This document shows positions 3,202 through 63,991 of a stretch of 64,000 bases of DNA, in pieces. The notes beneath the pieces were generated by a model. The model was not told the origin of the DNA. It did no database searches and saw only the letters and a program-made list of their open reading frames with translations. The stretch comes from Candidatus Azambacteria bacterium. Its GTDB lineage: Bacteria > Patescibacteriota > Minisyncoccia > GWC2-36-17 > WO2-46-25. The position numbers and the translations under genes are program-made. The stretch lies in contig JACQDT010000001.1 in the NCBI GenBank assembly GCA_016200965.1, forward strand, positions 3,544 through 67,543, given 5' to 3'. The number at the start of each line of letters is the position of its first letter. The first letter of the stretch is position 1.

Positions 3202-4158
3202 TTACACGAAAAAGCTTGAAATAAGCGCGATAAGCGCAAGCACGAAAGCGATGCCAAGAAAATCAGGCAAACGGAAAAGACGCAGCTTCGCGATGCTGTT
3301 TTCAATGAAAGCGATTACGCATACTGCGATAGAAACCTTGACCACAAGAAGAAATATCGCAAGCATGGCGGACGAAAACGTAAATTCCGCCATCAACCCG
3401 AACGGGAAAAAAATATTCACCAAAAGAACGAGAAAGATGGTCAGTTTGAGCGCCGCCGCCCATTCAATAAGCGCGAGCTGACGCCCGGAATATTCTAAAA
3501 TCATCGCTTCATGTACCATGGTCAGTTCAAGATGCGTTGCCGGATTGTCCACCGGTATGCGTTTATTTTCGGCAAGCAACACGATAAAAAACGCAGCAAA
3601 GGCAAATATATTACTAAGAAGGAAAAGGGAGCCCGGTTCGGCGAGCCCGTGTGAAATGATATTGCTTAAATTCGTCGATCCGCCTGCGCGCGCAACGGCA
3701 AAAATGGCAAGCATCATTGCCGGCTCGGAAAGCGAGTATATCATCACTTCCCTGCTTGACCCCATGCCTCCGAACGCCGATCCCGCATCAAGCCCCGCAA
3801 GCACCATAAAAAATGTTGCAAGCGCAAAAAGATAAATGATTAAAATAATATCGGCGGCGCTTCCAAGGGGCGAGAAGCTGAAAAGTACCGGAACAAAAAG
3901 CGCAACGCCCGCCGCCGCGCCGAAAATGATCCATGGCGCGATGCGAAATATAAATGACGTGTGTTCCGATATCACGGATTCCTTCCGGAAAAGCTTGAAT
4001 GCGTCGTAATACCCCTGCAAGAGCGGCGGACCGACCCTGTTTTGAAGGCGCGCCTTGATTTTCTTGATGGTCATACGCACCAGCGGAGCCGCGGCGATGA
4101 GCATGCCCGCCTGGAAAAAAACGATGCCCGCATATGAAAAAAGTATCGTGGTATCCAT
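3202..4158 (-). CDS. NuoH / HycD / HyfC-like membrane subunit
   Basis: 318-aa polytopic protein with complex I subunit 1 / formate hydrogenlyase subunit 4 architecture; translationally adjacent to its neighbours. Confidence 0.65.
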   Translation of the reverse strand: MDTTILFSYAGIVFFQAGMLIAAAPLVRMTIKKIKARLQNRVGPPLLQGYYDAFKLFRKESVISEHTSFIFRIAPWIIFGAAAGVALFVPVLFSFSPLGSAADIILIIYLFALATFFMVLAGLDAGSAFGGMGSSREVMIYSLSEPAMMLAIFAVARAGGSTNLSNIISHGLAEPGSLFLLSNIFAFAAFFIVLLAENKRIPVDNPATHLELTMVHEAMILEYSGRQLALIEWAAALKLTIFLVLLVNIFFPFGLMAEFTFSSAMLAIFLLVVKVSIAVCVIAFIENSIAKLRLFRLPDFLGIAFVLALIALISSFFV

Positions 4159-19026: not shown

Positions 19027-20171
19027 GAAGAAAGGTATTCCAATATGCAATCGTCAAAAACCGTTTCGCGGCGTTCTCTTTTATCATCTGCTACAATGCG
19101 TACGCGTACATTGCCGTCATACGACGACTGCTCCGCTCTCTGCGTTCGCGGGTTGCGTTCAAGGGGCAGTCCGGCAAGCCATGTTTCGTCGCGAAGCGCG
19201 TCGTATGCCTCCGGAGCATATTCCGACGCCACTACCCACACGTTGCCCGGCAATAAATTCGTTTTGTCTATCTGTGAAATCGCCGTAACCACTCCTTGCG
19301 CTATGTTGCGCGCCGCCGCAACGATCGTTTCTTTTATTTTTTCCGCTATCCAGGCATTAAGCGCGCCGCCTCGAAACGCATCAAGCATGCTCCGCGCTTC
19401 TTCTTTACCCACTGCGTGCGCCCGTGCCAGTTCTTCAATAAGTATACCATAACCGGCGCGAACAACGCCAATCCCCGCAATTTTTTTTGCGCGCACAACA
19501 ATAATATCGGTTTCATTTTCAAAAATTGCGGCCAATATCGCGCTGTCATTTCCCGTGAAAACCGTTTTCCATTCCGCTAAAGCACAGCGCACGTCCGTCA
19601 TTCCCGCGCATCGCATGCCTAAAGCGGAAGCGAATTCATCAAAAGCGCGTACCAGCGACTTTCCACACGCGATGCTCACTATATCCGCGGTTACTTCTTT
19701 TCCATTTAAACCAACCGCGTCGGGAACCGCAAAACCGTCTACCCAAAAACGCTGGGGGATATTGCGGAATTCGGACGCGGACGCTTCGTTTTCCTTTCCG
19801 TACCATTTTGAAGTGACCGCCTCCACTTCTTCTTTGGTTATTTTCTTTTCCTTATCCTGGCGTATTCCCTTCGCCTGCGCGAATGAAAACATCCCCGTGC
19901 CCCCCGAAAGCGCGACGATAAAATCTTTCGCCCCACTTTTTGATTCCTTGGAAAGCGCCTGCAGGGCCTTTTCGCAATTGAGTATTATTTTTTCTGCGGC
20001 AAAATCCCCTTCGGACACCTCGCTCTCCTGTTTTTCGCTCCCGCGCTCCACTACCACCACCCGGTCGCCTTCCTTTTTCACCACCATGGCGACAATGTTG
20101 TCCGTATACACGACAAACACCACCGCCCGTGAGTAGTCCTTAAAAAAATCTCCTTTCACAAGAAATGACAT
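19023..20171 (-). CDS. hypothetical protein, possibly actin-like ATPase fold (FtsA/PilM-like); carries one 42-bp repeat insertion
   Basis: N-terminal VVFVVYTDNIVAMVV and IVALSGGTG segments resemble ASKHA-fold proteins. A 14-aa NPRTQRAEQSSYDG insert sits near the C-terminus. Confidence 0.35.
   Translation of the reverse strand: MSFLVKGDFFKDYSRAVVFVVYTDNIVAMVVKKEGDRVVVVERGSEKQESEVSEGDFAAEKIILNCEKALQALSKESKSGAKDFIVALSGGTGMFSFAQAKGIRQDKEKKITKEEVEAVTSKWYGKENEASASEFRNIPQRFWVDGFAVPDAVGLNGKEVTADIVSIACGKSLVRAFDEFASALGMRCAGMTDVRCALAEWKTVFTGNDSAILAAIFENETDIIVVRAKKIAGIGVVRAGYGILIEELARAHAVGKEEARSMLDAFRGGALNAWIAEKIKETIVAAARNIAQGVVTAISQIDKTNLLPGNVWVVASEYAPEAYDALRDETWLAGLPLERNPRTQRAEQSSYDGNVRVRIVADDKRERRETVFDDCILEYLSS
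19116..19157 (+). repeat. 42-bp intragenic repeat unit, copy 1
   Basis: gtcatacgacgactgctccgctctctgcgttcgcgggttgc, in frame within the 19023..20171 ORF. Confidence 0.9.
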
Positions 20172-27814: not shown

Positions 27815-28969
27815 TCAATGGCTTTCATCATGAACGATTACGCCTCCGCCAAGCACTGCATCGTCGTCATACGACGACTGCTCCGCTCTCTGCGTTCGCG
27901 GGTTGCCGTCATACGACGACTGCTCCGCTCTCTGCGTTCGCGGGTTGCCGTCATAAAACACAATGGACTGGCCGGGGGTCACCGCGCGCTGGGGTTCGTC
28001 AAATATCACGTGAAGCGCGGCGTCAACGAAGCATTTCTGCAACGGCTGGCGATATCGGATGCGCGCTTCACAACGTAATGGAAACTGCGGCGCGGTTCCC
28101 GATATCCAACTTACACCCCGCGCAATCAATTCGGTCTTATACAAATCGCCTTCTTTTATGTTTTCCGCAACATACAGCGTGTTATGCGCGAGATCTTTTT
28201 GGGCGACGTAATACGCCGTGCCTCCGCCGGGAGAGCCGATGCCATGACGCTGGCCAATGGTGTAAAACACCGCTCCCTGATGCTTGCCCACCTGCTTTCC
28301 CGCCGCAGTCAGCACCGGCCCCGGCTGGGCGGCGATTTGGCTTTTTAGAAAATCAAACACCTCCAGTTCACCCACGAAGCATACCCCCTGGCTTTCCTTT
28401 CTGTTGGCGTTTGACAAGCCGAATTCCCGCGCGAGCTCGCGCACATGCGACTTAATAAAACCGCCTATGGGAAAAAGCACATGCGCTAATTTTTTTTGTG
28501 TCAGTGTCCACAAAAAATATGACTGGTCTTTGTTCTTGTCCATGCCGGCAAATAACGAGTAGCCGCCAGCAAGTAGTTGAGTGCGCGCATAGTGCCCCGT
28601 TGCAATAAAATCCGCTCCCATTGAAAGCGCGCGGTCAAGAAAAATACCGAACTTGATTTCTTTATTGCACATCACATCGGGATTGGGCGTGATTCCTTCA
28701 CGGTACGAAGAGACCATGTAGTCCACGACTTTCTTTTTGTATTCCTCCTGGACATCCCATGTATAAAAAGGAATGCCAAGCACGGCGGCCGCCTTGCGCG
28801 CCTCTTCCTGGTCCGCGACCCACGGGCACATCGTCTTGTCCTTGAAGAACCGGCTGTCAGACCAGCCCTTCATGAATACGCCCGTAACGTCATATCCTTC
28901 TTTTTTCAGCAATGCCGCCGCGACGGAACTGTCCACGCCGCCGGACATCGCAACGAATATTTTTTGCAT
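27815..28969 (-). CDS. mnmA: tRNA-specific 2-thiouridylase MnmA, carrying two tandem 14-aa repeat insertions near the C-terminus
   Basis: PP-loop AMSGGVDSSVAA, plus the MnmA core and C-terminal beta-barrel. The sequence IVFYDG-[NPRTQRAEQSSYDG x2]-D-AVLGGGVI shows the insert. Confidence 0.85.
   Translation of the reverse strand: MQKIFVAMSGGVDSSVAAALLKKEGYDVTGVFMKGWSDSRFFKDKTMCPWVADQEEARKAAAVLGIPFYTWDVQEEYKKKVVDYMVSSYREGITPNPDVMCNKEIKFGIFLDRALSMGADFIATGHYARTQLLAGGYSLFAGMDKNKDQSYFLWTLTQKKLAHVLFPIGGFIKSHVRELAREFGLSNANRKESQGVCFVGELEVFDFLKSQIAAQPGPVLTAAGKQVGKHQGAVFYTIGQRHGIGSPGGGTAYYVAQKDLAHNTLYVAENIKEGDLYKTELIARGVSWISGTAPQFPLRCEARIRYRQPLQKCFVDAALHVIFDEPQRAVTPGQSIVFYDGNPRTQRAEQSSYDGNPRTQRAEQSSYDDDAVLGGGVIVHDESH
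27866..27949 (+). repeat. two tandem 42-bp intragenic repeat units, copies 2 and 3
   Basis: Two exact consecutive units, followed by a partial gtcata. In frame in mnmA. Confidence 0.9.
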
Positions 28970-33280: not shown

Positions 33281-33880
33281 TTATCGAGCAATTGCTTTGT
33301 TAATTTCAGAAAGATACCGATCCTTTGACCATGAATCAGGCGCTTTTAGAATCTGCGTTCCTTTTTTCAGAAACACTTTCGTGTGCTGATAAGGAATGCC
33401 AAACGCCCGCGCAAGATTTTTTTCGTCGGCATCGGTGTCCGAATCGTTGTAGTTGACACGAAAGCCAATCACCTTGTCTGTGGTCAGCTCATTGAACGCA
33501 GACTGCATGACGGGAAACTCAAGCCGGCAAATCGGGCACCAGTTGGCATAGAAATACAGGACGATGAGCTTATCCGACGCTTTTGCCACGTCATAGTCCG
33601 GCTTGTTAAAATCAAGCACAAGCGCAGAAACTCCAGCCAAGATTTCTCCGGAGTATTTCACCATTGTCTCGTTCTTGCTCTCCAACGCTAAAGCTGTGGG
33701 GGACTTCTTTTCCATAGCTTCTCTGGCCATCCGGGCTTTCTCTTGCAAGGTGAAGGCTTTTTGGGATTGGAGAGCATAGAAGGCGGCACCCGCTATCACG
33801 AAGATCAAAACGATAATCGCAAGGTGTGCCAACAGCGCTATCCCCTGTGACGCATTATTCTTTTGCAATTTATTGACCAA
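33281..33880 (-). CDS. membrane-anchored thioredoxin-like protein (WCPIC active site)
   Basis: YFYANWCPICRLEFP thioredoxin motif. Paralogue of the upstream gene. Confidence 0.65.
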   Translation of the reverse strand: MVNKLQKNNASQGIALLAHLAIIVLIFVIAGAAFYALQSQKAFTLQEKARMAREAMEKKSPTALALESKNETMVKYSGEILAGVSALVLDFNKPDYDVAKASDKLIVLYFYANWCPICRLEFPVMQSAFNELTTDKVIGFRVNYNDSDTDADEKNLARAFGIPYQHTKVFLKKGTQILKAPDSWSKDRYLSEINKAIAR

Positions 33881-34619
33881 TCGCTTTGTTTATCTCCGTA
33901 AGGTAGCGTGCCTTATCCCATCCGTCGGGCGCTTTCAGAATTTGCTTTCCACTCTTCAGAAACACTTTCGTGTGCTGATAAGGAACGCCGAACTCGCGCG
34001 CGAGGTCTTTCTCATTGCTGTCGGTTTCGTTGTCGTTGTAACTGACCCGGAAAGCCACCACTTTATCCGTCGTCAGTTCGTTAAACGCCGCCTGCATCTG
34101 TGGGAATTCCGCTTTACAAATCGGGCACCAGTTGGCGTAGAAGTAAAGCACCACCAACTTGTCAGACGCTTTTGCGGCGTCGTAGTCCGGCTTGTTGAAA
34201 TCAAGAAGCGGCGCGGACTTTCCCGCAAGCACCGTGCCGGAGAACTTCAGCATCGCGGCTTCTGGCTTGACCATAGTTCCGTCGGGCTTAATCATTGTTC
34301 CATCGGGTTTGATCATCGTCCCATCAGGTTTCACCATGGTTCCATCTGGCTTAACAATGGTTCCGTCTGGTTTGACCATCGTGCCGTCTGTCTTAACCAT
34401 AGTGCCGTCGGGCTTAACCATTGTGCCGTCGGCTTTGACCACGGTGCCATCCGATAATGTCTTCTCACCTGTGGGCGCTTGCGGCGCTTGCGTGGTTGGG
34501 GCCGGTGACGGCTGTGTACGCGTGGCGAAATATCCGACTCCGGCAATGACCGCTAGAAGAGCAACTATTGCGATAATGATAGGCATCGCAAACCCTTTTT
34601 CTGCATTATTATTTTTCAT
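33870..34619 (-). CDS. membrane-anchored thioredoxin-like protein with nine PDGTMVK heptad repeats
   Basis: YFYANWCPICKAEFP motif. N-terminal signal anchor, then nine consecutive DGT(M/V/I)(V/I)K(P/A/T) heptads. Confidence 0.65.
   Translation of the reverse strand: MKNNNAEKGFAMPIIIAIVALLAVIAGVGYFATRTQPSPAPTTQAPQAPTGEKTLSDGTVVKADGTMVKPDGTMVKTDGTMVKPDGTIVKPDGTMVKPDGTMIKPDGTMIKPDGTMVKPEAAMLKFSGTVLAGKSAPLLDFNKPDYDAAKASDKLVVLYFYANWCPICKAEFPQMQAAFNELTTDKVVAFRVSYNDNETDSNEKDLAREFGVPYQHTKVFLKSGKQILKAPDGWDKARYLTEINKAIGQ
34263..34451 (-). repeat. nine 21-bp tandem repeats encoding the DGTMVKP heptads
   Basis: Direct repeats of ggcttaaccat(a/t)gtgccgtc-like units, visible in the DNA. Confidence 0.8.
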
Positions 34620-36057: not shown

Positions 36058-36295
36058 ATTTGATAGAGAAAATTTCTTCTACAGATATTGGTTTTTTTCC
36101 ACCGGAGGCGGATCCGCCTTCGGCGGAGAAAAACTTTGCCATTTTAAGCGCCAAAAGCACCAAGGGAGTGTAATTCCCCTTCTCAATCGCGATAATTGTC
36201 TGGCGCGTTACGCCAACCGCATGGGCCAACTCTTCTTGGGTGATGCCGGTTTTTGTTCGTAATTCGTACACCTGATTCTTGATAATTTCTTTCAT
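36047..36295 (-). CDS. XRE-family helix-turn-helix transcriptional regulator
   Basis: [45 protein letters not shown] is a YozG/Cro-C1-type HTH. The C-terminus contains the in-frame palindromic element that encodes [10 protein letters not shown]. Confidence 0.75.
36099..36126. repeat. 28-bp GC-rich near-perfect palindrome ccaccggaggcggatccgccttcggcgg, in frame inside the XRE regulator gene
   Basis: Self-complementary around a central GGATCC. Second copy at 38018-38045. Confidence 0.8.
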
Positions 36296-37121: not shown

Positions 37122-38143
37122 ATCTCCCAAAGCCAGCATCCATAATCATAGGGGGATTGTTCATTGCAGTCTTGGGATATTCCGTTTTGTCGCGCACTCT
37201 GTTCCAGAACGACTTTCCCATGCCGCAAGGCGGAGAAACCAAAAAAGAAACAAAGGGAATTATGATAACGGACGGCGTGAAACATAGCGTGCCGCTTGAT
37301 GAAATCATCGGAGGCGGCCCTTCAAAAGACGGCATACCGTCCATTGATAAGCCAAAGTTTGTTGTTCTTGCGGAAGCCAACTCGTTCTTGAAGGACTCCG
37401 AGCCGGGCATTGCGTTAGAGATGGGCGGCGTGAGCCGATTTTATCCGTTCCAAATTCTCGTGTGGCATGAAATTGTGAATGACACGATTGGCGGCACGCG
37501 CGTGCTGGTAACCTATTGCCCTTTGTGTCTTTCGGGAATTGTCTTTGATCCGGCAGTAAATGGCGAGCGCGTCGAATTCGGCACTTCGGGTAAATTATGG
37601 AATTCCAATTTAGTCATGTATGACCGCAAGACCGATTCGTTATGGTCGCAAATTTTGGGTGAAGCGATTGTCGGAGAGATGACGGGCATGAAGCTCGCGG
37701 TTCTCCCGTCCGACATGATCCGCTTCGGAGATTTCAAAAAATTGCATCCTGAGGGCAGCGTTCTTTCCCGCGACACGGGTACAACGCGCTTCTACGGCCA
37801 AGACCCGTACGGCGATTACTACACGACCCCGGGAACTTATTTCCCGGTCGGCAAAAAGGATGCCCGTCTTAATGAAAAAGATTTTGTCCTTGGCGTTGTC
37901 GTCAATGGAAAAGCAAAAGCATATTGGCCGGAAGCGGTGAAAAAAGCCGGCGAGGTAACGGATCGGTTTGAAGGAAAAGATATCGTTGCGCGATACGAAA
38001 AAGAGGTTGACGCGGTGCGTCTTTTTTCCGCCGAAGGCGGATCCGCCTCTGGCGGAGAGAAGAAATTAGTACGCATCAATTCATTCGGCGCGTTCTGGTT
38101 TTCCTGGGTTGCCGCGCATCCGGAGACGGAGTTGTACAAATGA
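37118..38143 (+). CDS. DUF3179-family secreted protein
   Basis: N-terminal signal anchor. YCPLC ... WNSNLVMYDRKTDSLWSQ pattern characteristic of DUF3179. The C-terminus contains the in-frame palindromic element encoding [10 protein letters not shown]. Confidence 0.55.
   Translation: MNLPKPASIIIGGLFIAVLGYSVLSRTLFQNDFPMPQGGETKKETKGIMITDGVKHSVPLDEIIGGGPSKDGIPSIDKPKFVVLAEANSFLKDSEPGIALEMGGVSRFYPFQILVWHEIVNDTIGGTRVLVTYCPLCLSGIVFDPAVNGERVEFGTSGKLWNSNLVMYDRKTDSLWSQILGEAIVGEMTGMKLAVLPSDMIRFGDFKKLHPEGSVLSRDTGTTRFYGQDPYGDYYTTPGTYFPVGKKDARLNEKDFVLGVVVNGKAKAYWPEAVKKAGEVTDRFEGKDIVARYEKEVDAVRLFSAEGGSASGGEKKLVRINSFGAFWFSWVAAHPETELYK
38018..38045. repeat. 28-bp GC-rich palindrome ccgccgaaggcggatccgcctctggcgg, in frame inside the DUF3179 gene
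   Basis: Near-identical to the element at 36099-36126 in reverse-complement-equivalent form. Encodes the same [10 protein letters not shown] peptide. Confidence 0.8.
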
Positions 38144-41652: not shown

Positions 41653-43227
41653 TTAAACTGTTCTTTTGATGTAACGCAACCCCACGAAAAAAATACCGAT
41701 GATTCCTAAAATAAAAAGGTACGTGTTCCACGGAAACGCGTGTGCCGCAAGCGCCACGGGCGCCTGTTTTTCGTCTCGCGCTTCTTTGGCGGTGGATGCG
41801 ACCGTTGTCTCGCTTCCTTCGCTTTTTGCCTCCGCCGGCGCCACAACATCTTGAAACTGCGGCGCGGGCGCCACGGTCGGTTTTTTGATTTCTATCGCGG
41901 AAACCGGAGAAGAAGAAATTCCGCCGGCTGGCTCTTGCGCGGAAAGAAACATATTTGTTCCGCCCGGCGTGGGGCTTTGTGTCCATACGAATCGTTCGTC
42001 ATACGACGACTGCTCCGCTCTCTGCGTTCGCGGGTTGCCGTCATCGGCGCGCGCGACCGACCAGCACATCTTTGCATTTTCATATGTAACCTCATGCGCC
42101 GTCTGGCCTGTCGGATATGATAATACAACATGCCCCGACAAAGGAAATGTTATCTTGAGCGTGTCTCCGGAAAACACGAGAAATCCGCCGCCCGCGATGA
42201 ATGTATGTTCCGGAACACGAAACATCGCGGCGGACCCGCCTATTCCTATGCTCCATCCGGATAAATCCGCAAACGAATCGCTTGTATTATACAATTCAAG
42301 CCACTGCCCGCCGCTTTCAGATGAAGGAAGAAATTCGGAAATAACGACGCTCTGCGCGTATATGGTCGCCTCTATTTGATCCTGACTTGAGTGCGAGCCG
42401 TCCGATACCGTCAGCACCGCGACATACTTCCCCGGAAACTGATACCGATGCATGGTCGTTTTTCCTTCGGCAACATTCCCGTCGCCGAAATTCCATGAAA
42501 ACGCGAGTAAACCGGCGCCCGTTGATCGTGAGGCGTCAAATGAAACCGCATCTCCCGCAACAGCGACGATATTGGCGCCCGCATCAGCAACAATGGTATT
42601 TTGGGAAGCGGCGGAAGCACCCGACGGTTGCGCCGTCGTCTGGGACGAAGAAGACGGAGAAACACCTGCCCCGCTGTTTGGCGCGCGAGGCGTGCCATGT
42701 ATCGGATTGCCTTTCACATCCATCCCGTTTTGTGCCGTTCCGTCATTCGTATGCCATCCTTGCGCGTCTTTTTCCATTGACGCGTAATCGGGCGAAGCGG
42801 ACCCCGCGGGCCAACCGGAGGAAAAATCTATATTGTCCACAACGTTTCCCGCGTTATCTTTCAGCACTACATGCTCTCCGGAATTATTCAATCCGCTCCC
42901 CCCAAATGAGCCCGTCTCATCGGCGGGAACATCTGCGATGACGGTGTCATCGGTCCGTTCAATAAGATAATATCCGTTCGCGGATATTTTTTTCGTCAAC
43001 GCAATGACAAGCGTGCTCCCGCCCGCCTCGTACAGTCCCCAACCCGCAAGATCAATTTCGGCGTTCGTCGCATTTTTCAGTTCCACCCATTCATCGGCGC
43101 TGTTGGCTTTTGTCCCCATCCACCCAACTTCGTTTATCACCACATCGCCCGCGCCCGCGGCAAACACATATAAAGGGATGCTCCACACAACAAGCAACGC
43201 CTGAAAAAGAATTCTTGCGATTCGCAT
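41653..43227 (-). CDS. secreted protein with two lamin-tail domains and a PKD domain; carries one 42-bp repeat insertion
   Basis: Lamin-tail-domain signatures VVINEVGWMG ... DEWVELKN ... DLAGWGL and VVISEFLPS ... QWLELYN ... DLSGWSI. PKD-like FSWNFGDGNVAEG. DDG-NPRTQRAEQSSYD-ERF insert. Confidence 0.6.
   Translation of the reverse strand: MRIARILFQALLVVWSIPLYVFAAGAGDVVINEVGWMGTKANSADEWVELKNATNAEIDLAGWGLYEAGGSTLVIALTKKISANGYYLIERTDDTVIADVPADETGSFGGSGLNNSGEHVVLKDNAGNVVDNIDFSSGWPAGSASPDYASMEKDAQGWHTNDGTAQNGMDVKGNPIHGTPRAPNSGAGVSPSSSSQTTAQPSGASAASQNTIVADAGANIVAVAGDAVSFDASRSTGAGLLAFSWNFGDGNVAEGKTTMHRYQFPGKYVAVLTVSDGSHSSQDQIEATIYAQSVVISEFLPSSESGGQWLELYNTSDSFADLSGWSIGIGGSAAMFRVPEHTFIAGGGFLVFSGDTLKITFPLSGHVVLSYPTGQTAHEVTYENAKMCWSVARADDGNPRTQRAEQSSYDERFVWTQSPTPGGTNMFLSAQEPAGGISSSPVSAIEIKKPTVAPAPQFQDVVAPAEAKSEGSETTVASTAKEARDEKQAPVALAAHAFPWNTYLFILGIIGIFFVGLRYIKRTV
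41998..42039 (+). repeat. 42-bp intragenic repeat unit, copy 4
   Basis: Exact unit followed by a partial gtcatc. In frame in the lamin-tail-domain gene. Confidence 0.9.
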
Positions 43228-48387: not shown

Positions 48388-50517
48388 TTATTTGCTTAAT
48401 AATGGCTCAACGCGCTTCAACAGCGTCGCGTTCGTTGCCACAATAATAGAAGAAGCCGACATAAGGAGCGCGGAGATCTCCGGCCGAAGCGACCAGCCCA
48501 GCGAGGTGTAAAATACGCCCGCCGCGACGGGGATCGCGAGCACGTTGTAGATCGTCGCCCAAAAGAGGTTCTGTTTCATTTTGGCGACCGTGGCTTTGCT
48601 TAGGCGGATTGCCGCCACGATGTCGTACGGGTCCGACTTCATCAGCACGATATTTGCCGTTTCTATGGCGACGTCGGTGCCCGCGCCGATGGCGATGCCG
48701 ATGTCGGCCTGGGCAAGCGCGGGCGCGTCATTAATGCCGTCGCCCACCATCGCGGTGAATTTTCCTTCTTGCTGCAATTTCTTCACGTAATCCGCCTTGT
48801 CGTGCGGAAGCACCTGCGCGAAAAATCTAGTGATACCCAGCTCGTCGGCGACCGCGCGCGCCACCTGTTCGTGGTCGCCGGTGATCATCGCGACTTCAGG
48901 TCCAAGCGCTTGTAACGCCGCAATGGTCTTTTTCGCGCTTGGACGCAAGGCATCGCGTATCGCGATTACTCCCACCGCTTTTCCGTCAATCGCGACGATG
49001 CTGAGCGGGTTGCCGTCATACGACGACTGCTCCGCTCTCTGGGTTCGCGGGTTGCCGTCATACGACGACTGCTCCGCTCTCTGGGTTCGCGGGTTGCCCT
49101 CAAGAAGCGCACGATCAATCTCCGCCTGGACGGGCGCGGTGTCAATCCTGTTTTGCGCCATCAGCTTTGTTGTGCCGACGATCACCGTCCTGCCGTCAAC
49201 TTTGGCGCGGATGCCGAGCCCGCCGAGCGCCTCAAATTTTTCCACGCGCCCGAGGGTCTTTATGTTTCTTTTTTTGGCTTCCTTTAAAATCGCGGCGCTG
49301 ACGGGATGATTCGAGCCCAGCGAAGCGGAGGCGGCGTGCGCGAGCACGGCCTCGTCCGAAAACCTTCGCGTGCCGCTCACCCGAGTAATCGCCGGCTTTC
49401 CCTCGGTAAGCGTGCCGGTTTTATCCAGCACGATCGCGGTAAGCCGCGACGTATTTTCAAGCGTTGCGGCATCTTTAATGAGAATATTATGCCTCGCGCC
49501 GATGCCGGTCCCGACCGCGACGGCGGTGGGAGTAGCAAGCCCCAGCGCGTCGGGACACGCGATGACAACGGTAGAAATGGCAAGGGTGAGCGACGCGATC
49601 AGCGTTGCGCCGGCAATGACATACCAGCCCAAAAAGGTCGCGATGCCGGCGCCCACGGCAAGCACGACAAGCCATGCCGCCGCCCGATCGGCGATGCGCT
49701 GGCCGGGCGCTTTTGAGTTCTGCGCCGTTTCCACGAGCTTAATGATCTGCGCGAGCACCGTTTCCGAGCCGACAGCCATCGCCCGGAATTTCACCATACC
49801 TGTCAGATTAACCGACCCGCCGACGACTTTCGCGGCTATGGTTTTCACAACCGGCATGGACTCTCCCGTCACGAGGGATTCATCGATTGAAGATTCTCCT
49901 TCAGTAATCTCGCCGTCCACCGGTACTTTATCGCCCGGTCGGAGCACCACAATATCACCGCGGATGATTTCCGCGCTTGCGATGCCCGTCTCTTTCCCGC
50001 CGCGGATAACATTGGCCTTCGATGGCACGAGGTCAAAAAGCGCGCGCAGGGCGTCGGACGTACCGCGCCGCGACTTCATCTCCATCCAGTGGCCGAATAG
50101 CACGAATGTCACCAGCATCGCCGCCGCTTCATAAAATGCTTCCCCGTTGCCTTTAAAAGCAAGCGCGATACTGCCCGCATATGCGGCCAAAACGCCGGTG
50201 GCGATAAGCACCGCCATATTGAGCGTGCGCGCCTTGAGCGAATAATATGTCCCCGTGATGAAAATGGAACCGGTCCAGAACACGATCGGCGTCGTCAAAA
50301 GAAAAAGAAGCCAGTTTTTCGGAATCGGCGATGGGAGCGAAACGCCAAAAAGCATTTCCCCCATCTGCGAATACAACACGATGGGAACGGTGAGCGCGAA
50401 CGAAATGAAAAATCGCCGGCGCATATCCGTTTCCATTTCCTTTGCCATCTGCGGGTTCGTCATCGCCGCTTCATGATCGCGATGGCTCACTGTATGCATA
50501 TGATGCTCGTGTTCCAT
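48388..50517 (-). CDS. heavy-metal-translocating P1B-type ATPase with His-rich N-terminus; carries two tandem 14-aa repeat insertions
   Basis: DKTGTLT, TGDHE and GDGINDAP motifs. TM metal site reads IACPDALGLATP (CPD rather than CPC). N-terminus MEHEHHMHTVSHRDHE. ALLEG-[NPRTQRAEQSSYDG x2]-NPLSIVAIDG shows the insert. Confidence 0.85.
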   Translation of the reverse strand: MEHEHHMHTVSHRDHEAAMTNPQMAKEMETDMRRRFFISFALTVPIVLYSQMGEMLFGVSLPSPIPKNWLLFLLTTPIVFWTGSIFITGTYYSLKARTLNMAVLIATGVLAAYAGSIALAFKGNGEAFYEAAAMLVTFVLFGHWMEMKSRRGTSDALRALFDLVPSKANVIRGGKETGIASAEIIRGDIVVLRPGDKVPVDGEITEGESSIDESLVTGESMPVVKTIAAKVVGGSVNLTGMVKFRAMAVGSETVLAQIIKLVETAQNSKAPGQRIADRAAAWLVVLAVGAGIATFLGWYVIAGATLIASLTLAISTVVIACPDALGLATPTAVAVGTGIGARHNILIKDAATLENTSRLTAIVLDKTGTLTEGKPAITRVSGTRRFSDEAVLAHAASASLGSNHPVSAAILKEAKKRNIKTLGRVEKFEALGGLGIRAKVDGRTVIVGTTKLMAQNRIDTAPVQAEIDRALLEGNPRTQRAEQSSYDGNPRTQRAEQSSYDGNPLSIVAIDGKAVGVIAIRDALRPSAKKTIAALQALGPEVAMITGDHEQVARAVADELGITRFFAQVLPHDKADYVKKLQQEGKFTAMVGDGINDAPALAQADIGIAIGAGTDVAIETANIVLMKSDPYDIVAAIRLSKATVAKMKQNLFWATIYNVLAIPVAAGVFYTSLGWSLRPEISALLMSASSIIVATNATLLKRVEPLLSK
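49015..49098 (+). repeat. two tandem 42-bp intragenic repeat units, copies 5 and 6 (ctctgGgttcgc variant)
   Basis: Two consecutive units in frame in the P-type ATPase gene. Preceded by gagcgggttgcc, which resembles a partial unit end. Confidence 0.9.
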
Positions 50518-50595: not shown

Positions 50596-53500
50596 ATGCC
50601 CACCTTTGAAGAACGGTTCAATAAACTGAATGAGGGGCAACGAAAGGCCGTCCAAGCCATCGAGGGGCCTGTCCTTGTCATCGCCGGCCCGGGAAGCGGC
50701 AAGACGGAAATACTCGGCCTTCGCGTGGCCAATATCCTGAAAAAAACGGACACCCATCCGGGCAGCATCTTGTGCCTCACCTTCACGGATTCCGCCGCGG
50801 CAAACATGCGCGAGCGGCTTTCCGGCCTCATCGGGAGCGACGCCTACCGCGTCGTCATTGCCACGTTCCACAGTTTCAGTACCGACATCATCAACCGCTT
50901 CCCTGAATATTTTTACAACGGCGCGGCGTTCTCTCCCGCCGACGAGCTTACGCAAATGGAAATCCTTGAAGGCATATTCAAGGAATTGCCGTACGACAAT
51001 CCCTTGCGCACACAACACCCCGTGCAAGGATTCACCTATCTGGGAAGCGCGCGCAAATCGATCAGCCAGCTTAAAAAAGCCGGCATCGGCCTGGATGCGT
51101 TCGCGCGCGTTTTGAAATCAAACGCGCACGCCATCGGCGGAATAAACAAAAAGATGGAAATATTTGACGCGCGCATGAGCATGAAACAGATTGCCGCCAT
51201 CCGCGAATGCGCGGCGCAGCTTGACGTGTCTGCGCAAGAATCCGCGCTGAAAGAATACGCGCCGCTTGCGCACGCGGTCGCGCGCTCTCTTGAAGAAGCC
51301 GTTTCTTTAGCAGGAGAACAAGATACAATCGCGCCGCTATCCAGGTGGAAATCCGACTGGGTAAAAAAGAATGATGATATGCGTGTCTTTAAAGATACGA
51401 TGTACATGGAGAAGCTTTCCGCGCTTGCTGACGTTTATAACACATACCTGACCCGTATGCATGAGCGCGGGTATTACGATTTCGACGACATGCTTTTGAA
51501 CGTCCTTGAAGCGCTTGAACGCAACAGCGCGCTTCGCTATGAACTGCAGGAGCGGTATCAATACATTCTTGTGGATGAATTTCAGGACACCAACGATGCC
51601 CAGATGAAGCTGATCTCTTTTTTGACCGACGCCCGGGTGCACGAAGGGCGGCCCAACATCATGGTGGTGGGAGACGACGACCAGGCGGTGTATAAATTCC
51701 AGGGGGCTGAAATTTCAAACATCCTTGAGTTTCAAAGGCGATATCGCGACCCCGAGATCATCACGCTCACGCATAATTACCGCTCGCGCCAGGATATTTT
51801 AGACCTTGCCCGCCATATCATCCTGAAAGGAACGGAGCGGCTTGAACGGCGCATCGCCGGCCTTCGCAAAGATCTCGTCGCGGCGGGAAACAATATAAAA
51901 GAGGGTGCGATTGCAAGCCGCGTGTTCCCCTCAAGCGCGCACGAACGCCACTTTATAGGAAAAGAAATAAAAAAACTCATTGAAGGCGGCGCCAAGCCCG
52001 ACCACATAGTCGTTATCGCGCGACACCACCGCGACCTTGAAGCGCTTCTGCCGTACTTCGCCGCATCGGGCATTCCCGTCGCCTATGAACGCCAGCGCAA
52101 CGTGCTTCACGAGCCGCATGTGTACCAGATAATCCAAATCGCCAGATTCATATCTTCGCTCGCGCGGAAAAATCGCGCCGAAGCGGACGAATATCTTCCC
52201 GAAATTTTGAGCTTTCCTTTCTGGGGACTTGAGCGCAACACCATATGGGAGCTTTCCGCTTCGGCGGGGGCGCGAGGGGCGTTGTGGCTTGAAACGATGA
52301 TGCATCACACGGACGCGCGTTTGCGAAGCATAGCCGATCTTTTCCTTAACCTTGCTTTGCGCGCACAACACGAACCGGCCGAATACGTGCTTGACGCGAT
52401 CATCGGCTCGCCGTCATACGACGACCGCTCCGCTCTCTGGGTTCGCGGGTCGCATGAGAACGCCATGGAGGGCGGGGCCGTAAGCCCGTTTCGCGAATAT
52501 TACTTCGGCAAAGAGAAATTCGCGCGCGACAAAGCGACGTATCTTTCGTTCCTTTCCGGCCTGCACGCGTTCGTGCGGGCGCTTCGCGAATACAAGCAGG
52601 GACGATTTTTGAAGATAGACGATCTCGTTGCGTTCGTGGATATGCACGAAAAAAATAACATGCCCATCACCGACCAGAGCCCGTTCGTCGCCGCCGACAA
52701 GGCAGTGCATCTGCTTTCCGCCCATAAGGCAAAGGGGCTTGAATTTGAAACGGTGTTTGTCCTTTCCTGCCAAGACAACATATGGGCGGGGTCGCCGCGT
52801 GGATCCATGCTTCCCTTCCCCATGAACCTGCCCATCGCCCCCGCCGGCGACACCATGGACGACCAGCTCCGGCTTTTTTACGTCGCGCTCACGCGGGCGA
52901 AACACAACCTATACCTCACTTCATTTGAAAAAATGGAAAACGGAAAAAGCTCGGCGCGACTGCGCTTCCTTATAGAGGAGGAAGGCGGCCACATGAAAAC
53001 AAACGTCAAAGCGGCATTGGCGCCTGCGCCCGAAGAAAAAGAAGATACGCCCGAGCCGACCGACATCTTTTCGGCAGGGTGGGAACAGTACAACCGCGGC
53101 CCTCGTATCGCCGACGAAGAAGCGCTTTTGCGCGCGCTCGTGAAGGACTATCAAATGAGCGTGACACATCTGAATAATTTCCTGAACGTGAAAAAAGGCG
53201 GTCCGCAGGCATTTTTGGAACAAAATCTTCTGCGGTTCCCTCAGGCAAAAACGCCGTCTTTATCCTACGGCTCGGCGATGCACAAAGCGATCGAGCTTTT
53301 GTATCTCCGCTTCAAAAAAGAAGGAGTGCTTCCACCGCCGGAGCATCTGACGCAAGCATTTGAACGCGCGCTTGAAATGCAGCGCCTCGCCAAAGATGAC
53401 TTTATGAAATATCTCGCTCAGGGAAAAAACGCTCTTACGAAATTTTACGAAATGAAAAAAGAACGATTTTCCCAAAGCGACCTGGTGGAAGTCAATTTCA

Positions 53501-58640: not shown

Positions 58641-59491
58641 ATGAAACAGGAAACTAAAAACACGCCTCCGCAGAACATATGGGACCTGGCGGTCATCGGC
58701 GGAGGGCCGGCTGGCATGATGGCGGCCTCGCGCGCGGCCGAGTGTGGCGCGAAAGTCGTTTTGCTCGAAAAAAACGATACGCTCGGCAAAAAGCTTCTCA
58801 TCACCGGCGGAGGCAGGTGCAACGTCACCAACGCGGAATTCGACACGCGAAAATTTCTCTCAAAATTCAAGGGAAACGATAAATTCCTCTTCTCGGCGTT
58901 TTCGCAACGGGGCGTCAAAGAAACGCTGGATTTTTTCCACGCGCACGATATGCCCACCAAAGTGGAAGCGGAAAACCGCGTATTCCCCAAAAGCAACAGC
59001 GCCAAATCGGTGTGGGACGTGCTCGCGCGCTCCATGAAAGACAACGGCGTAACACTCCTTTCGCGTTCCCCTGTCGCTGGATTTGTTAAAAAAGGAAACG
59101 AGATACTGGCCGTGCGTTGTGCGGATGGAAAAGAAATAAAAGCCAAAGCGTTCGTGCTGGCAACCGGCGGCATGTCGCGCCCCGAAACCGGCTCCACGGG
59201 CGACGGATTCGTGTGGCTGAAAAAATCGGGCATACCGTCATTGCGTCGGACCCGGCTTTGGTGCCTGTTGCGGTCAAAGACGCCTGGGTCAAAAAACTCC
59301 AGGGCGTCAGCGTGCCCCGCGTCAAAATAACCCTGTTTCAAAACGGTCAAAAGCAAGACGTAAGTGAAGGCAACCCGCGAGCCCGGAGAGCGGAGCAGTC
59401 GTCGTATGACGACAAAATATTGTCCTTGTCCCAATTTCCTGTCCCGATTTCCGCGCCAAACCTTGGCCGGGCGGACTCTCAATTCGTATGA
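58641..59491 (+). pseudogene. HI0933-like FAD-dependent oxidoreductase (aminoacetone oxidase family), frameshifted near 59230 and truncated after a degenerate repeat copy
   Basis: GGGPAGMMAA Rossmann fold, GGGRCNVTN, and GSTGDGF-VW-AEKIGHTVIASDPALVPV. The family consensus is recovered only by joining two frames (one G missing in gtgtggctg). Ends about 115 aa short of family length. Confidence 0.55.
59369..59410 (-). repeat. 42-bp repeat unit, copy 8, reverse orientation and degenerate (encodes GNPRARRAEQSSYD)
   Basis: ggcaacccgcgagcccggagagcggagcagtcgtcgtatgac. Lies just before the premature stop of the HI0933-like gene. Confidence 0.8.
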
Positions 59492-59595: not shown

Positions 59596-61524
59596 ATGGA
59601 AAAGTATCCGTTACACCTCAAAAATCCCGAATTGCAAACATCACCTGAAGTGCAACGGGCCGTTGAGCGTGAGGAGCAGAAAACGGGGGAAAAGGTGCCC
59701 AATGACCCGGCCGAGCGCATTGAGGCCTATCTTAAACGACTCGAAAAGTTGGTTCTTGATCCAAAAAAAGAACAAGAGAGCAAAGCCATGCGAGATGTTG
59801 AACATACAGAGCGTCCGCGAGCACTGTCGCTTTTACGCGAGATGATTTTAAACGAATATGTGCGCCCAAATAAAGAACAGATGGCACAAGGCGCAGCTCG
59901 GGTTGAACAACGTGCCGCTCGACAAATGGGTATTCAGGCCGAATACAACGACGAAACGCTTGAACATCGAGGCGAGATAGCCGTCGGCGATCTTGAAAGC
60001 TCGCTCGATGAATGGATAAAGTATCTTTCTGACCCAAACGAGCCATACCCGACATGGTTCCGTTATTACGCCTTTAGGAACATTCTTAACCTTGGAGAAT
60101 ACGACAAAGACAAACAGGAATTTCCGAAGCGTTCAAAAGGCACCTTCAAACTCTTTCCGGATATTGACCGCGGGGCGTTAGCTTATGTGGAGGAGATAAT
60201 GACTGCCACACAGGACGATACAGTCTTGGCGCGAGTGCGTGAATCTCAAAAAGAATTTGGTACACCTGAAGCTGACATGTGGACACCTCAAAAAGCACAG
60301 AATTTTGTAAAAATGTCTTTTGCAAAGCAATATGCGAAAGGTATCGAAGCACAGGGAACGATTACGCCGGAACTTCGCGCAGAAACACAAGGTGAGTGGG
60401 TGCATTTTCACCAAAACGACAACCCAAAAATCCTCTGGAAATCACTTCAAAATAAAGGAACAGCATGGTGCACAAGGGGATATCCAACCGCAGAAACACA
60501 GCTCAAGGGCGGAGACTTTTATGTATATTACACACTAGATGCTACGGGAAAGCCAACAATTCCTCGTATTGCTATCCGTATGGAGGGTCAAAATAAAATC
60601 GCCGAGGATCCTCGGGGTGTATTTGACTCTCAACAGAATCTTGAACCAAACATGGTAGATATTTTAGACGAGAAACTCAAAGAATTCGGAGGAGAGGCGG
60701 ACGCATACCGCAAGAAAAGCGAGGACATGCGAATGCTCACCGCTCTTGAGAAAAAGCGTGAGAACGAGGAAGCGTTCACCAAGGATGATCTTATTTTGCT
60801 GTATGAAATCAATGGAACTATCGAAGGATTCGGATATCAGAAAGACCCTCGCATCGCGGAACTCCGACAAGGCAGAAATGCCGAGGAGGATATGCTCGTC
60901 ATATTTGAATGCGCGAGAGACGAGATCGCTCACGTGCCGAGCCAAATACAGTCAAACACCAAAGCGTATGTCGGCCAACTCGAGCCGGGCATATTCCGGA
61001 GACTGCCGGAAAATCTTGAGCACGTTTATACCTCGTTTCCCGATAAGAAAATTCGCAGAGAAAATGTTGAGATAGGAGGCAAGTCGGCCGAGCAGTTGAT
61101 ATCTGAAATGCAAGCGGCTGGCATCAACATTTCCGACTACGCAAAATCAATGCTCAAAAATAGGGAGTTCGTGCCGGGAAAAAATCCGGAGGAAGCGACA
61201 CTCATCAGACTTACCGTAGCCGATCTCGGATTCAAGAGCAGCGCCACGACTGACCAAATTTATGAACGCGCTCAAATTCTCGGACTGGAACTGTGTCCTG
61301 CCGATACTGGTCCAAACTATCGTTTGAGGTATCGAAACCAACCCTTAAATGAATGGATTTATATGAGCATGAAGCAAATCGCCGGCTCTGACGGCGGCCC
61401 GAGCGTCTTCGAGCTGGTTCGCAACGACGGCGGTTTGTGGCTGGACGGCCATTGGGCGGGACCCGACGGCGAGTGGGGTCCGGGCCGCGAGTTCGTGTTC
61501 CGTCTCCGCAAGTCTGAATCTTAA
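59596..61524 (+). CDS. hypothetical 642-aa protein (orphan; no recognisable domain)
   Basis: Long uninterrupted ORF with coding-like composition. GC-rich Gly/Pro/Trp-rich C-terminus (GPDGEWGPGREF). Confidence 0.45.
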   Translation: MEKYPLHLKNPELQTSPEVQRAVEREEQKTGEKVPNDPAERIEAYLKRLEKLVLDPKKEQESKAMRDVEHTERPRALSLLREMILNEYVRPNKEQMAQGAARVEQRAARQMGIQAEYNDETLEHRGEIAVGDLESSLDEWIKYLSDPNEPYPTWFRYYAFRNILNLGEYDKDKQEFPKRSKGTFKLFPDIDRGALAYVEEIMTATQDDTVLARVRESQKEFGTPEADMWTPQKAQNFVKMSFAKQYAKGIEAQGTITPELRAETQGEWVHFHQNDNPKILWKSLQNKGTAWCTRGYPTAETQLKGGDFYVYYTLDATGKPTIPRIAIRMEGQNKIAEDPRGVFDSQQNLEPNMVDILDEKLKEFGGEADAYRKKSEDMRMLTALEKKRENEEAFTKDDLILLYEINGTIEGFGYQKDPRIAELRQGRNAEEDMLVIFECARDEIAHVPSQIQSNTKAYVGQLEPGIFRRLPENLEHVYTSFPDKKIRRENVEIGGKSAEQLISEMQAAGINISDYAKSMLKNREFVPGKNPEEATLIRLTVADLGFKSSATTDQIYERAQILGLELCPADTGPNYRLRYRNQPLNEWIYMSMKQIAGSDGGPSVFELVRNDGGLWLDGHWAGPDGEWGPGREFVFRLRKSES

Positions 61525-61879: not shown

Positions 61880-63331
61880 TTATTTCTCCAGATCAAGCAC
61901 TTCGTCAATGCGGATTTTTTTCACAAATTCGGGAACGTGGCTGACCAGAATCATCGCGCCCTGATACGCGTTCAGCGCGTCGGCGATGAGCGGAATATGG
62001 CGAAAATTGATATGGTTGGTCGGCTCGTCCAAGATAAGAAGCCCCGGCTTTTGCAAAACGAGCCGCGTGAAGGCGACCAATCCCTTTTGCCCTTCCGAGA
62101 GCGCCCCGATTTTCGTGCCCATACTCTCCGCGCCGATAAGAAACCCCGCGGCCGTGGACCGCAGGTTGTGTTCATTTTGCTTATCCATCGCAGAAAAAAG
62201 AGAATCATACACCGTATCGTCAAAATTAAGCGTTGAGAAATCCTGGCGGTAATATCCAATGCGCACGCCTTCGGCTATCGTAGCCCCACTTGCGTGTCCC
62301 GAAGCCAGTGCTTCCAAAAGCGTGCTTTTGCCTATGCCGTTGGGACCGGAAAGCAGAAGATGCGTATTTTTCTTCAGCGAAATCTTCGCCGCGTGCGTTA
62401 CCGATTTATAGTTTTTCAGCGTGGTATAGGAAGTAATGCGCACGATTTCTCCCGTCAAATCCTCCTGAACGGGTATCGTGAAAGGGCGGATGGTTTTGTC
62501 TTCTTTTCGCACGTCGACTTTCGCCGCTTCAAGCTCCTCGGCTTTGTCGCGCATGCGCTTTGCCACCATCCGCATCTTTCCGCCTTTGTGCGCGAAAAAA
62601 TTCGCCTTGTCTTTGTTTTCCTGTATCTCTTTTGCGAGCTGTGCGTTCTTGCTGTTTTCTTTTTCTATGCGCAACGTTATGTCTTTCACCACATCAAAAT
62701 AATTCCCCGCGTATTGCTCTATCTTTTTAGTGAACACGTCAAGATACAGCACGCCGTCGGTGAATGCATTCAGAAAACCCGCGTCATGGGAAATGACAAT
62801 GACCGTCTTTTCGTATTTCTTGAGAAAATCAGTCAGATGCGCGATCCCCGCCTTGTCCAGATTATTCGTCGGCTCGTCAAGAAGTAAAATATCCGGATTT
62901 TGGATAAGCGCGGACGCGAGTAAAAGCCGCGCCTGCTGGCCGCCCGAAAACGACTTGATGACTTTATCGTACGGCGCCGAGAGATGCACCACTTCCAACA
63001 CCGCCTCTATCCTCGGGTCTATGTCATACACTTTCGCCGCAAAGCATTTCTCAAAAAATGCTCTCACTGTCAGATGCATTTGATCGCGCGGGATCGCCTG
63101 GCGCGCCGTCGCAACGGAAAAATCGTCATCAATACTCGCCTTGCCCGAGTCGGGATGAATCGCTTTCGTGATTAAGGAAAATAGCGTGCTTTTCCCAGCG
63201 CCGTTTTGCCCCATGAGCGCGATCTTCATCCCGCCGCGCACCGAAAAACTCACCTCATGCAAAATGGGCTTGGTGTGTCCGTATTCAAAAGACACTTCAT
63301 CAAATCGTATGACGATTTCGTCGCGCGACAT
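61880..63331 (-). CDS. ABC-F family ATPase (tandem ABC domains, no TM domain; EttA/Uup/YheS-like)
   Basis: Two Walker A motifs (GQNGAGKST, GPNGIGKST). Two signature motifs (LSGGQQARLLLA, LSEGQKGLVAF). Two Walker B motifs (ILLLDEPTN, LLILDEPTN). Start set at MSRDEIVIRFDEV. Confidence 0.8.
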   Translation of the reverse strand: MSRDEIVIRFDEVSFEYGHTKPILHEVSFSVRGGMKIALMGQNGAGKSTLFSLITKAIHPDSGKASIDDDFSVATARQAIPRDQMHLTVRAFFEKCFAAKVYDIDPRIEAVLEVVHLSAPYDKVIKSFSGGQQARLLLASALIQNPDILLLDEPTNNLDKAGIAHLTDFLKKYEKTVIVISHDAGFLNAFTDGVLYLDVFTKKIEQYAGNYFDVVKDITLRIEKENSKNAQLAKEIQENKDKANFFAHKGGKMRMVAKRMRDKAEELEAAKVDVRKEDKTIRPFTIPVQEDLTGEIVRITSYTTLKNYKSVTHAAKISLKKNTHLLLSGPNGIGKSTLLEALASGHASGATIAEGVRIGYYRQDFSTLNFDDTVYDSLFSAMDKQNEHNLRSTAAGFLIGAESMGTKIGALSEGQKGLVAFTRLVLQKPGLLILDEPTNHINFRHIPLIADALNAYQGAMILVSHVPEFVKKIRIDEVLDLEK

Positions 63332-63380
63332 CTCCACACAGTACCTTATCTCATCAAAAATGGGAAGTGGTCCGCTTGCC

Positions 63381-63422
63381 GTCATACGACGACTGCTCCG
63401 CTCTCTGCGTTCGCGGGTTGCG
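63381..63422 (+). repeat. 42-bp repeat unit, copy 9, in the 5' leader of the ABC-F gene and abutting the palindromic element
   Basis: An exact unit, preceded by tccgcttgcc. Confidence 0.9.
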
Positions 63423-63425
63423 CAC

Positions 63426-63727
63426 ACGCAAACGGCGGTTTCACTTTCTCAAAGAAAAGCGTCGCGAGGCCGAAGCGGGCAGGGTGCTCCCGCGCTCCCT
63501 TCGGTCCGTCAACCCGCTCGGGCGTTCCAGCGACACCCTCGCTTTTCTCCGCTGACGGCGAGGTTTTGGCAGGCGGATTATACCAAAACCACCCAGCTCG
63601 CCTGCTTAAGAAGATTTCCTGACCGAAGGGAGCGCGGGAGCGAGCGGAGGCCGACGCCGAGCATTGATTTTCTCGCTGGGAAAATCAATGCGTCTTTTCG
63701 TGGGAAAGTGAAACCGCCGTTTGCGTT
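63426..63727. repeat. ~300-bp MITE-like palindromic element with 23-bp perfect terminal inverted repeats
   Basis: acgcaaacggcggtttcactttc at 63426-63448 pairs with gaaagtgaaaccgccgtttgcgt at 63705-63727. Nested internal inverted repeat ctcccgcgctcccttcggtc / gaccgaagggagcgcgggag. Confidence 0.6.
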
Positions 63728-63730
63728 TAT

Positions 63731-63991
63731 CTAAAACATCTTCTTACCTGCTCGCGCCAAACTGAGTTTTTTCTCCCTGCGCCAGCTCTTGATTTCGGCT
63801 TCCCGCCGCCGCGCCGCCGAGAATGTTTTCGCCGTTTCCGAATAGACAAGCTTCACCGGACGTCTGATTTTCGTGTAATGCGCCCCCGCCTTCGCGCTAT
63901 TGTGCTGTGCAATTCTCTTTGCCAGATCGTTCGTGGAGCCGACATACAAAGTCCCGTCGGCGCATTTGAGCATATAGACGAAGTGGGTCAT
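63731..63991 (-). CDS. GIY-YIG nuclease superfamily protein (UPF0213/YhbQ-like)
   Basis: [28 protein letters not shown] carries the GIY ... YIG motifs, with a conserved Arg and Glu (REAEIK). Confidence 0.75.

Follow-up and report, generated by a model that had tools for sequence, protein, structure and literature searches.

In the 64-kb window analysed here (the whole stretch of 64,000 nucleotides from the metagenome-assembled genome of an uncultured groundwater bacterium, a Candidatus Azambacteria member of the Parcubacteria/CPR), a nested palindrome of 301 bp (63426-63726) lies between the genes for a GIY-YIG protein and an ABC-F ATPase, and comparison with related genomes indicates that it is a derived, species-specific insertion that came to lie precisely behind the GIY-YIG stop codon and ahead of the promoter-like block of ABC-F. 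We tentatively read the element as a solitary MITE-like or foldback insertion, non-autonomous and now inert, an assignment to which we give a little less than an even chance.

The initial annotation had read the palindrome as inserted DNA and had proposed to look for empty sites in related strains, and both ideas were borne out: in five related genomes (L086, L090, L091, L092 and L002) the same site lacks the element and GIY-YIG runs straight into ABC-F, with 22-100 nt between the two genes. The closest other species that we recovered is represented by a 46-kb Logan contig (L086), with nucleotide identities of 81% for ABC-F and 88.6% for GIY-YIG; its intergenic spacer is 22 nt long and the sequence reads ...GCGCGCAAGTAA|ACCACTTCCCATTTCC... 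Spacers of 100, 27 and 83 nt were found in congeners with 82-84% ABC-F protein identity (L090, L091 and L092, respectively), and one of 40 nt in Azambacteria RBG_16_47_10 (L002). In contrast, the element occupies the corresponding position in the sister assembly GCA_016178885.1 (99.4-99.7% identity to the window), whose contig L084 covers 189 nt of it on the GIY-YIG side with 100% identity. The site is occupied in both strains of the species (the window and the sister assembly) and empty in five other species, and because of these empty sites we regard the presence of the element as the derived state. The alternative of a conserved leader or terminator is refuted by the same absence from five relatives.

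In all five relatives, the GIY-YIG stop codon is immediately followed by a conserved block of the form CTTCCC..TTTTT..G..TA(C/T)T(A/G)T, which resembles a promoter with a -10-like box; in the window, this block comes after a 42-bp repeat unit (see below). Between the -10-like box and the ABC-F start, L090 and L092 carry a hairpin of the form ATCCCGC-loop-GCGGGAT (approximate positions 3960-3985 and 3965-3990, respectively), which may be a leader structure. A leader hairpin of this type is missing from the window and from L086.

Read on the minus strand, the locus runs from GIY-YIG through the element, four bases, one 42-bp unit, GCAAGCGG and the 40-nt block to ABC-F, the ATG of which is at 63331 (Table 1). 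Together with rnr, which like GIY-YIG lies upstream of ABC-F, these genes form a tightly packed string in the order rnr, GIY-YIG, ABC-F. The close adjacency of the element to its two neighbours had been recognised from the start, but the gaps, then given as 3 bp each, both measure 4 nt: GCAC separates the 42-bp unit from the element, and another 4 nt separate the element from the GIY-YIG stop codon (63731-63733). The identity of the GIY-YIG gene was confirmed by a match to Pfam PF01541 (E 1.4e-18).

Table 1. Features of the GIY-YIG/ABC-F locus and sites of the 42-bp unit, in window coordinates.
Feature	Coordinates	Strand	Remarks
ABC-F ATPase, 483 aa, MBI3684851.1	61880-63331	-	
HY250_00360, 141 aa	63309-63734	+	read through the 42-bp unit and the palindrome; overlaps the ABC-F start
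Conserved promoter-like block ACCACTTCCCATTTTTGATGAGATAAGGTACTGTGTGGAG, -10-like TACTGT	63332-63371	-	directly after the GIY-YIG stop in all relatives
42-bp unit, copy 9	63380-63421	-	inserted at GCAA microhomology
GTGC on the minus strand	63422-63425	-	joins 63372-63379 once the 42-bp unit is removed, giving GTGCGCAAGCGG
Left terminal inverted repeat	63426-63451		23 bp perfect, 26 bp with one mismatch
Inner perfect 21-bp inverted repeat	63486-63506 (left arm), 63621-63641 (right arm)		
TGGTATAAT, extended -10 consensus, in the central loop	63577-63585	-	points towards ABC-F
Perfect 12-bp hairpin (63661-63691) followed by GTCTTTTCGT	63661-63700	+	terminator-like, on the plus strand only
Right terminal inverted repeat	63701-63726		pairs with 63426-63451
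16 nt, AAGATGTTTTAGATAA on the minus strand	63727-63742	-	missing in relatives; new GIY-YIG tail ..KMF and stop
GCAGGTAAG	63743-63751	-	codons orthologous to GCGCGCAAG (A-R-K) of L086; 6/9 match
GIY-YIG protein, 86 aa, catalytic domain only, MBI3684853.1	63731-63991	-	
42-bp unit sites	19115-19156, 27865-27948, 41997-42038, 49014-49097, 52412-52453, 59359-59400, 63380-63421		

The palindrome had originally been given as 63426-63727, which is correct except for its right end, one base further in at 63726. The perfect 23-bp terminal inverted repeats that had been reported are present (63426-63448 and 63704-63726) and reach 26 bp if one mismatch is allowed; a donor insertion sequence would be expected to have ends that begin ACGCAAACGGCGG. 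When the element was aligned to its own reverse complement, about 80 nt proved to be homologous between the arms, and perfect blocks of 23, 21 and 12 bp alternate with stretches in which only about 50-60% of positions match, while the hairpin at 63661-63691 is an extra piece of the right arm that is missing from the left one. The nested internal inverted repeats and the potential to fold into one long hairpin, both described at the outset, were likewise recovered in the form of the 21-bp pair, the 12-bp hairpin and fold z-scores of -8 to -11. Specifically, the predicted RNA folds reach -164.8 kcal/mol (z -7.8) for the plus strand and -164.9 kcal/mol (z -9.0) for the minus strand, and single-stranded DNA folds at -97.5 kcal/mol (z -11.4). 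With seven G-U pairs on each strand, neither RNA strand is favoured. The GC content of the element (59.5%, compared with 50.2% for the window) suggests a foreign origin. We treat the TGGTATAAT motif of the central loop as a lead only, because the window contains two extended -10 sites of this kind (TGNTATAAT) when 1.2 are expected by chance.

A second, much shorter palindrome occurs elsewhere in the window. Two 88%-identical copies of this 40-nt sequence, TTTTTTCC(A/G)CCG(G/A)AGGCGGATCCGCCT(T/C)(C/T)GGCGGAGA(A/G)AA, at 36091-36134 and 38020-38063, bracket a cluster encoding an HTH protein, a 126-aa protein and DUF3179, and each looks like a bidirectional terminator.

The element had been described as having no ORF. 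This is accurate in so far as it contains no credible gene, but the element is not wholly free of ORFs: one plus-strand frame is open throughout, and GenBank annotates it as the hypothetical protein HY250_00360 (141 aa). Judging from protein searches, in which it has no relatives, this gene call is almost certainly spurious. A search of 5.8 billion clustered proteins returned only GenBank's own ORF, and exhaustive phmmer against 1.84 billion cluster representatives detected no relative save a low-complexity chance match (P0147, E 5.8e-4). A concatenated protein search with the other five reading frames of the element yielded nothing at E up to 10.

The proposal of a MITE-like mobile element is consistent with the size of the palindrome, its terminal repeats and the lack of a credible gene, but neither a second copy nor an abutting direct repeat was found. 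The suggested check for further copies with the terminal repeats and the internal sequence came back negative, with one copy in the 64 kb and none in the collections searched; since these DNA collections do not include the carrier genome, the copy count refers to the 64-kb window only. Within the window, neither the terminal repeat at 3 mismatches nor short-word BLAST uncovered another copy, the chance expectation for a terminal-repeat match being about 0.02 even at 3 mismatches. The element was also missing from about 1 Mb of related Parcubacteria loci, and neither it nor its terminal repeats were found in 185,579 species-representative genomes, a set that does not contain the carrier genome itself. 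JGI metagenomes held nothing related to the element, and IMG/VR viral contigs contained no exact terminal repeat; the inner repeat, the central hairpin and the 42-bp unit were all missing from viral contigs as well. Distant-mode blastn against phage and plasmid records gave nothing but one 23-nt chance match. An exact 23-nt match to the terminal repeat was detected at 970-992 of a 1.5-kb metagenome contig (L001, MWWF01013380.1), inside a 334-aa ORF, without a second arm and without flanking similarity. Although only 0.01-0.02 such matches are expected by chance, on an assumed mean size of metagenome contigs, we judged this lone 23-mer inside an ORF, with no second arm, to be a coincidence and rejected it as a second element. 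Four independent contigs of the same population (L082, L084, L085 and L087) end in or beside the element or the 42-bp unit. Simple k=31 repeat logic fails to explain where they stop, and we therefore draw no conclusion on repetition from these ends, which fit repeats, heterogeneity or hairpin-related loss of coverage alike.

Compared with L086, the species has gained, on the minus strand, the 16 nt AAGATGTTTTAGATAA, the 301-bp element and the 42-bp unit, and the insertion has left GIY-YIG with three new residues at its end and a new stop codon. Beyond the 16 nt, which separate the right-hand terminal repeat from it, lies a putative GIY-YIG-side copy of a 9-bp target duplication (63743-63751). 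On the ABC-F side, the flank without the 42-bp unit reads GTGCGCAAGCGG|ACCAC, compared with GCGCGCAAGTAA|ACCAC in L086; GTGCGCAAGCGG matches the ancestral GIY-YIG tail GCGCGCAAGTAA of L086, at 8/9 positions over the first 9 nt, and is the putative ABC-F-side copy of the duplication. A GCGCGCAAG-like 9-mer is present on both sides of the element, matching at 8/9 positions where it abuts one terminal repeat and at 6/9 where it stands 16 nt from the other, and this degenerate pair may be what is left of a target-site duplication. Immediately next to the two terminal repeats, the minus-strand flanks read ATAA and GTGC, respectively, and share no direct repeat. The empty allele would join GCGCAAG directly to ACCACTTCCC.

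The window contains nine copies of the 42-bp unit, in agreement with the initial annotation. Its further statement that the copy beside the element is the only intergenic one is nearly right, except that the copy at 59359-59400 sits in a pseudogenised HI0933-like gene. Copies in conserved genes are precise in-frame insertions of 14 codons. Five genes carry the unit in sense orientation (encoding MnmA, a P-type ATPase, an LTD/PKD protein, an unknown protein and the HI0933-like protein), and it is then always read as GNPRTQRAEQSSYD, or as GNPRARRAEQSSYD in the diverged HI0933-like copy; in MnmA and the P-type ATPase it is tandemly doubled. In a gene for a UvrD-like helicase the orientation is reversed and the unit is read as PSYDDRSALWVRGS. 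Orthologues show a gap of exactly 14 residues at the unit site (L090 and L091 for the helicase, L086 for the HI0933-like protein), and no 42-bp unit was found in the roughly 1 Mb of related loci. All junctions of the unit share 4-10 nt of microhomology with the permuted unit junction ...GGGTTGC|CGTCATA...

The HI0933-like flavoprotein gene (58641-59443) is a pseudogene with a frameshift near residue 191 and a truncation near residue 278, just after its 42-bp unit copy, while the L086 orthologue is intact (421 aa). It is followed by a 642-aa ORF (HY250_00350, 59596-61524) that has no Pfam domain and is known only from the species of the window. Another repeat was observed in a minus-strand gene (33870-34619), where a coding 21-nt tandem repeat at 34251-34453 specifies seven DGTMVKP-like residues per unit; the window and the sister strain (L089) differ here by 126 nt, that is six units.

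The 42-bp unit and the palindrome had been suspected to be related or co-mobilised, an idea that is not supported. The other eight copies of the unit have no palindrome nearby, the unit itself is not palindromic (folding z about 0), and the two share no sequence, their local alignment score falling inside the shuffle range. Two events in a permissive gap are the simplest reading, with the unit beside the element arriving separately, because its insertion follows the same microhomology rule as the other copies, here with GCAA, and because removing the unit alone restores tail-like sequence.

The suggested link between the GIY-YIG nuclease and the element fared no better, since this protein, which consists of the catalytic domain only, also adjoins ABC-F in many Parcubacteria without the element. 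In at least 13 of 80 representative Parcubacteria loci, ABC-F has a GIY-YIG homologue as its immediate neighbour, either upstream or downstream, and GIY-YIG adjoins ABC-F in all four congeners (4/4); all of these loci are without the element. Judged by synteny, the adjacency of GIY-YIG and ABC-F is older than the insertion, with no sign of a functional link, and the GIY-YIG gene is an ordinary syntenic neighbour and bystander. A homing-endonuclease cassette was rejected on the grounds that the protein has 86 aa and no DNA-binding domain, and that its orthologues flank ABC-F in element-free relatives.

MITEs are defined as elements that stay below 500 bp, end in inverted repeats of about 4-30 bp and encode no transposase; they are typically AT-rich and sit in AT-rich intergenic DNA, their copy numbers range from 1 to 22 per genome and single-copy MITEs are documented (PMC10969869). 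The element has a length of 301 bp, terminal repeats of 23/26 bp, no transposase gene and both occupied and empty sites, but it departs from the AT-richness that is typical, though not obligatory, of MITEs (59.5% GC). Like the hairpin MITEs Correia/NEMIS of Neisseria, ERIC and the QMITEs of Coxiella, it is shorter than 500 bp, has terminal repeats and no transposase, lies in an intergenic region near a promoter-like block, is predicted to form a very stable stem-loop and varies in presence among relatives. Unlike them, it is GC-rich, has a single known copy, a second perfect inner repeat and no clean flanking direct repeat, has no known related insertion sequence and resides in a CPR host. A full-text literature search, with co-mentions judged by title, found no report of a MITE in the Candidate Phyla Radiation, and a full-text search likewise found no Patescibacteria work on an in-frame repetitive element. 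For the 42-bp unit, the nearest parallel is provided by the Rickettsia palindromic elements, dispersed repeats that lie in-frame in unrelated conserved genes (PMC10969869). The unit resembles them in being dispersed and in-frame in conserved genes that stay open, but differs in its length of only 42 bp, its lack of a palindrome, its frequent tandem doubling and its junction microhomology in place of terminal inverted repeats.

Several known classes of structured or repetitive DNA were considered and set aside. The window gave no match to Rfam 15 at the gathering score, and the locus gave only two chance-level matches at E up to 10 (to a miRNA and an S6-S18 leader model); no tRNA or tmRNA was found. 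An ABC-F attenuator or leader of the vmlR/msrA type was rejected, as the element lies upstream of the inferred promoter block that abuts the ATG and its terminator-like site is on the opposite strand. REP/REPIN sequences are imperfect palindromes of about 20-40 bp that occur in many copies, usually as inverted doublets, together with a RAYT gene. The element, on the other hand, forms one structure of 301 bp, the dispersed 42-bp unit has no palindromic symmetry, and no RAYT gene was seen among the 14 window ORFs scanned against Pfam. Retron RNA was dismissed for want of an adjacent reverse transcriptase, a TnpB/IscB guide RNA for want of a nuclease gene, 6S or SRP RNA for want of an Rfam match, and a CRISPR or TIGR array for want of spacers.

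The MITE or foldback reading has to contend with the single copy in 64 kb, the lack of a known cognate transposase, the high GC content, the atypical inner perfect repeat and a putative duplication that is degenerate and stands 16 nt off one terminal repeat. We therefore weighed it against other origins. A local origin, in which the GIY-YIG/ABC-F spacer itself underwent inverted duplication or template switching during replication, so that a quasi-palindrome arose and was then perfected without any transposase, would account for the single copy and for the missing clean target duplication, and perfect blocks between segments of about 50-60% identity are the pattern that template-switch correction leaves; the insertions of the 42-bp unit in the same genome, all with 4-10 nt of junction microhomology, point in the same direction. 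The element indeed resembles template-switch quasi-palindromes in having nested perfect blocks within an imperfect palindrome at one locus. However, template switching as a rule alters sequence that is already in place, over tens of bases, whereas this locus has about 320 bp of new DNA with a different composition. Across about 1 Mb of Parcubacteria loci, the terminal-repeat core has its closest counterpart (19/20 and 20/22) in a conserved gene for a DedA-like membrane protein of L086 (2845-2866, ACGGCGGTTTCACTTTC..), 2.3 kb upstream of the L086 empty site. This match is a weak lead for a local source: beyond these 20-22 nt no neighbouring or orthologous sequence matches the element, 1 of 100 shuffles scored as high, and the DedA-like gene is missing both from the 64-kb window and from 6.4 kb upstream of the sister (L084) GIY-YIG. 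Given in addition that the GC content differs from that of the surroundings, we regard a local origin as unlikely. Decidedly unlikely, in our view, is a lineage-specific functional RNA or regulatory module, such as an insulator or RNase III hairpin, a small RNA driven by TGGTATAAT or an ABC-F leader. The extreme predicted stability, the perfect extended -10 in the central loop facing ABC-F, the terminator-like hairpin on the plus strand and the small hairpin in the ABC-F leader of L090 and L092 would all suit such a function, and perfect stem blocks beside diverged spacers could mean selection on pairing. Against it, no Rfam family was matched even at E up to 10, the element is missing in all five relatives, the two strands are equally prone to fold, with 7 G-U pairs each, and give no hint of an RNA-level strand, there is no sense-strand terminator, the position is upstream of the conserved promoter-like block and not in a 5' UTR, and TGNTATAAT occurs twice in the window, with 1.2 expected.

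That the palindrome and the 42-bp unit form one composite element or are co-mobilised, with the GIY-YIG protein as nicking or mobilising nuclease, appears very improbable. The two do stand 4 nt apart, are both missing from the empty sites and are both GC-richer than the genome, but eight other copies of the unit occur without the palindrome nearby, unit and element have no common sequence and the unit forms no hairpin (z about 0); moreover, the restoration of tail-like sequence by removal of the unit alone implies two events, and at least 13 other Parcubacteria loci show the synteny of catalytic-domain-only GIY-YIG with ABC-F but have neither repeat. An assembly artefact, namely a fold-back chimera at an inverted repeat, deserves mention given that only the HY250 contig spans the whole element, being the sole recovered contig to cover 63426-63545, with sister contig L084 stopping in its middle, and that the Logan contigs break off after 41 nt of the element (L085) or within the 42-bp unit (L082 and L087). 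We consider it extremely improbable: the sequences on the two sides of the inner repeat are not reverse complements of each other, beyond the element the contig continues into the correct syntenic gene, and the 189 nt on the GIY-YIG side are independently confirmed at 100% identity.

On the MITE or foldback reading, the ancestor of one Azambacteria species would have acquired a GC-rich palindrome of 301 bp in its chromosome. The 23-26-bp terminal repeats would have been recognised by a transposase acting in trans, and a staggered cut at the target would have led integration to duplicate about 9 bp of it, GCGCGCAAG-like. At present the element would be inert, and its sole likely effect would be a very stable hairpin in read-through transcripts, either blocking them or being cleaved, which would uncouple ABC-F from the upstream rnr and GIY-YIG genes and leave it to its own promoter-like block. 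The 42-bp unit would have come separately, by the same kind of event as at the eight other sites.

There is also a slim chance that one uncharacterised, microhomology-guided process, active in this CPR lineage, gave rise to both the palindrome and the 42-bp unit by copying short GC-rich cassettes into the chromosome. If this were true, essential genes would keep only the in-frame products, a permissive spacer could gain a large nested palindrome, and the process would represent a new route to the diversification of proteins and genomes in bacteria with very small genomes. If, on the other hand, the element is a true MITE, it would document a small non-autonomous transposon in a Parcubacteria/CPR genome. 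The insertion also illustrates that a tightly packed string such as rnr, GIY-YIG, ABC-F can be split and the downstream promoter yet be spared. Taken alone, the element carries modest weight and is chiefly of value as a pointer to unusually active small-repeat dynamics in this species, which the in-frame 42-bp unit displays more strikingly than the palindrome.
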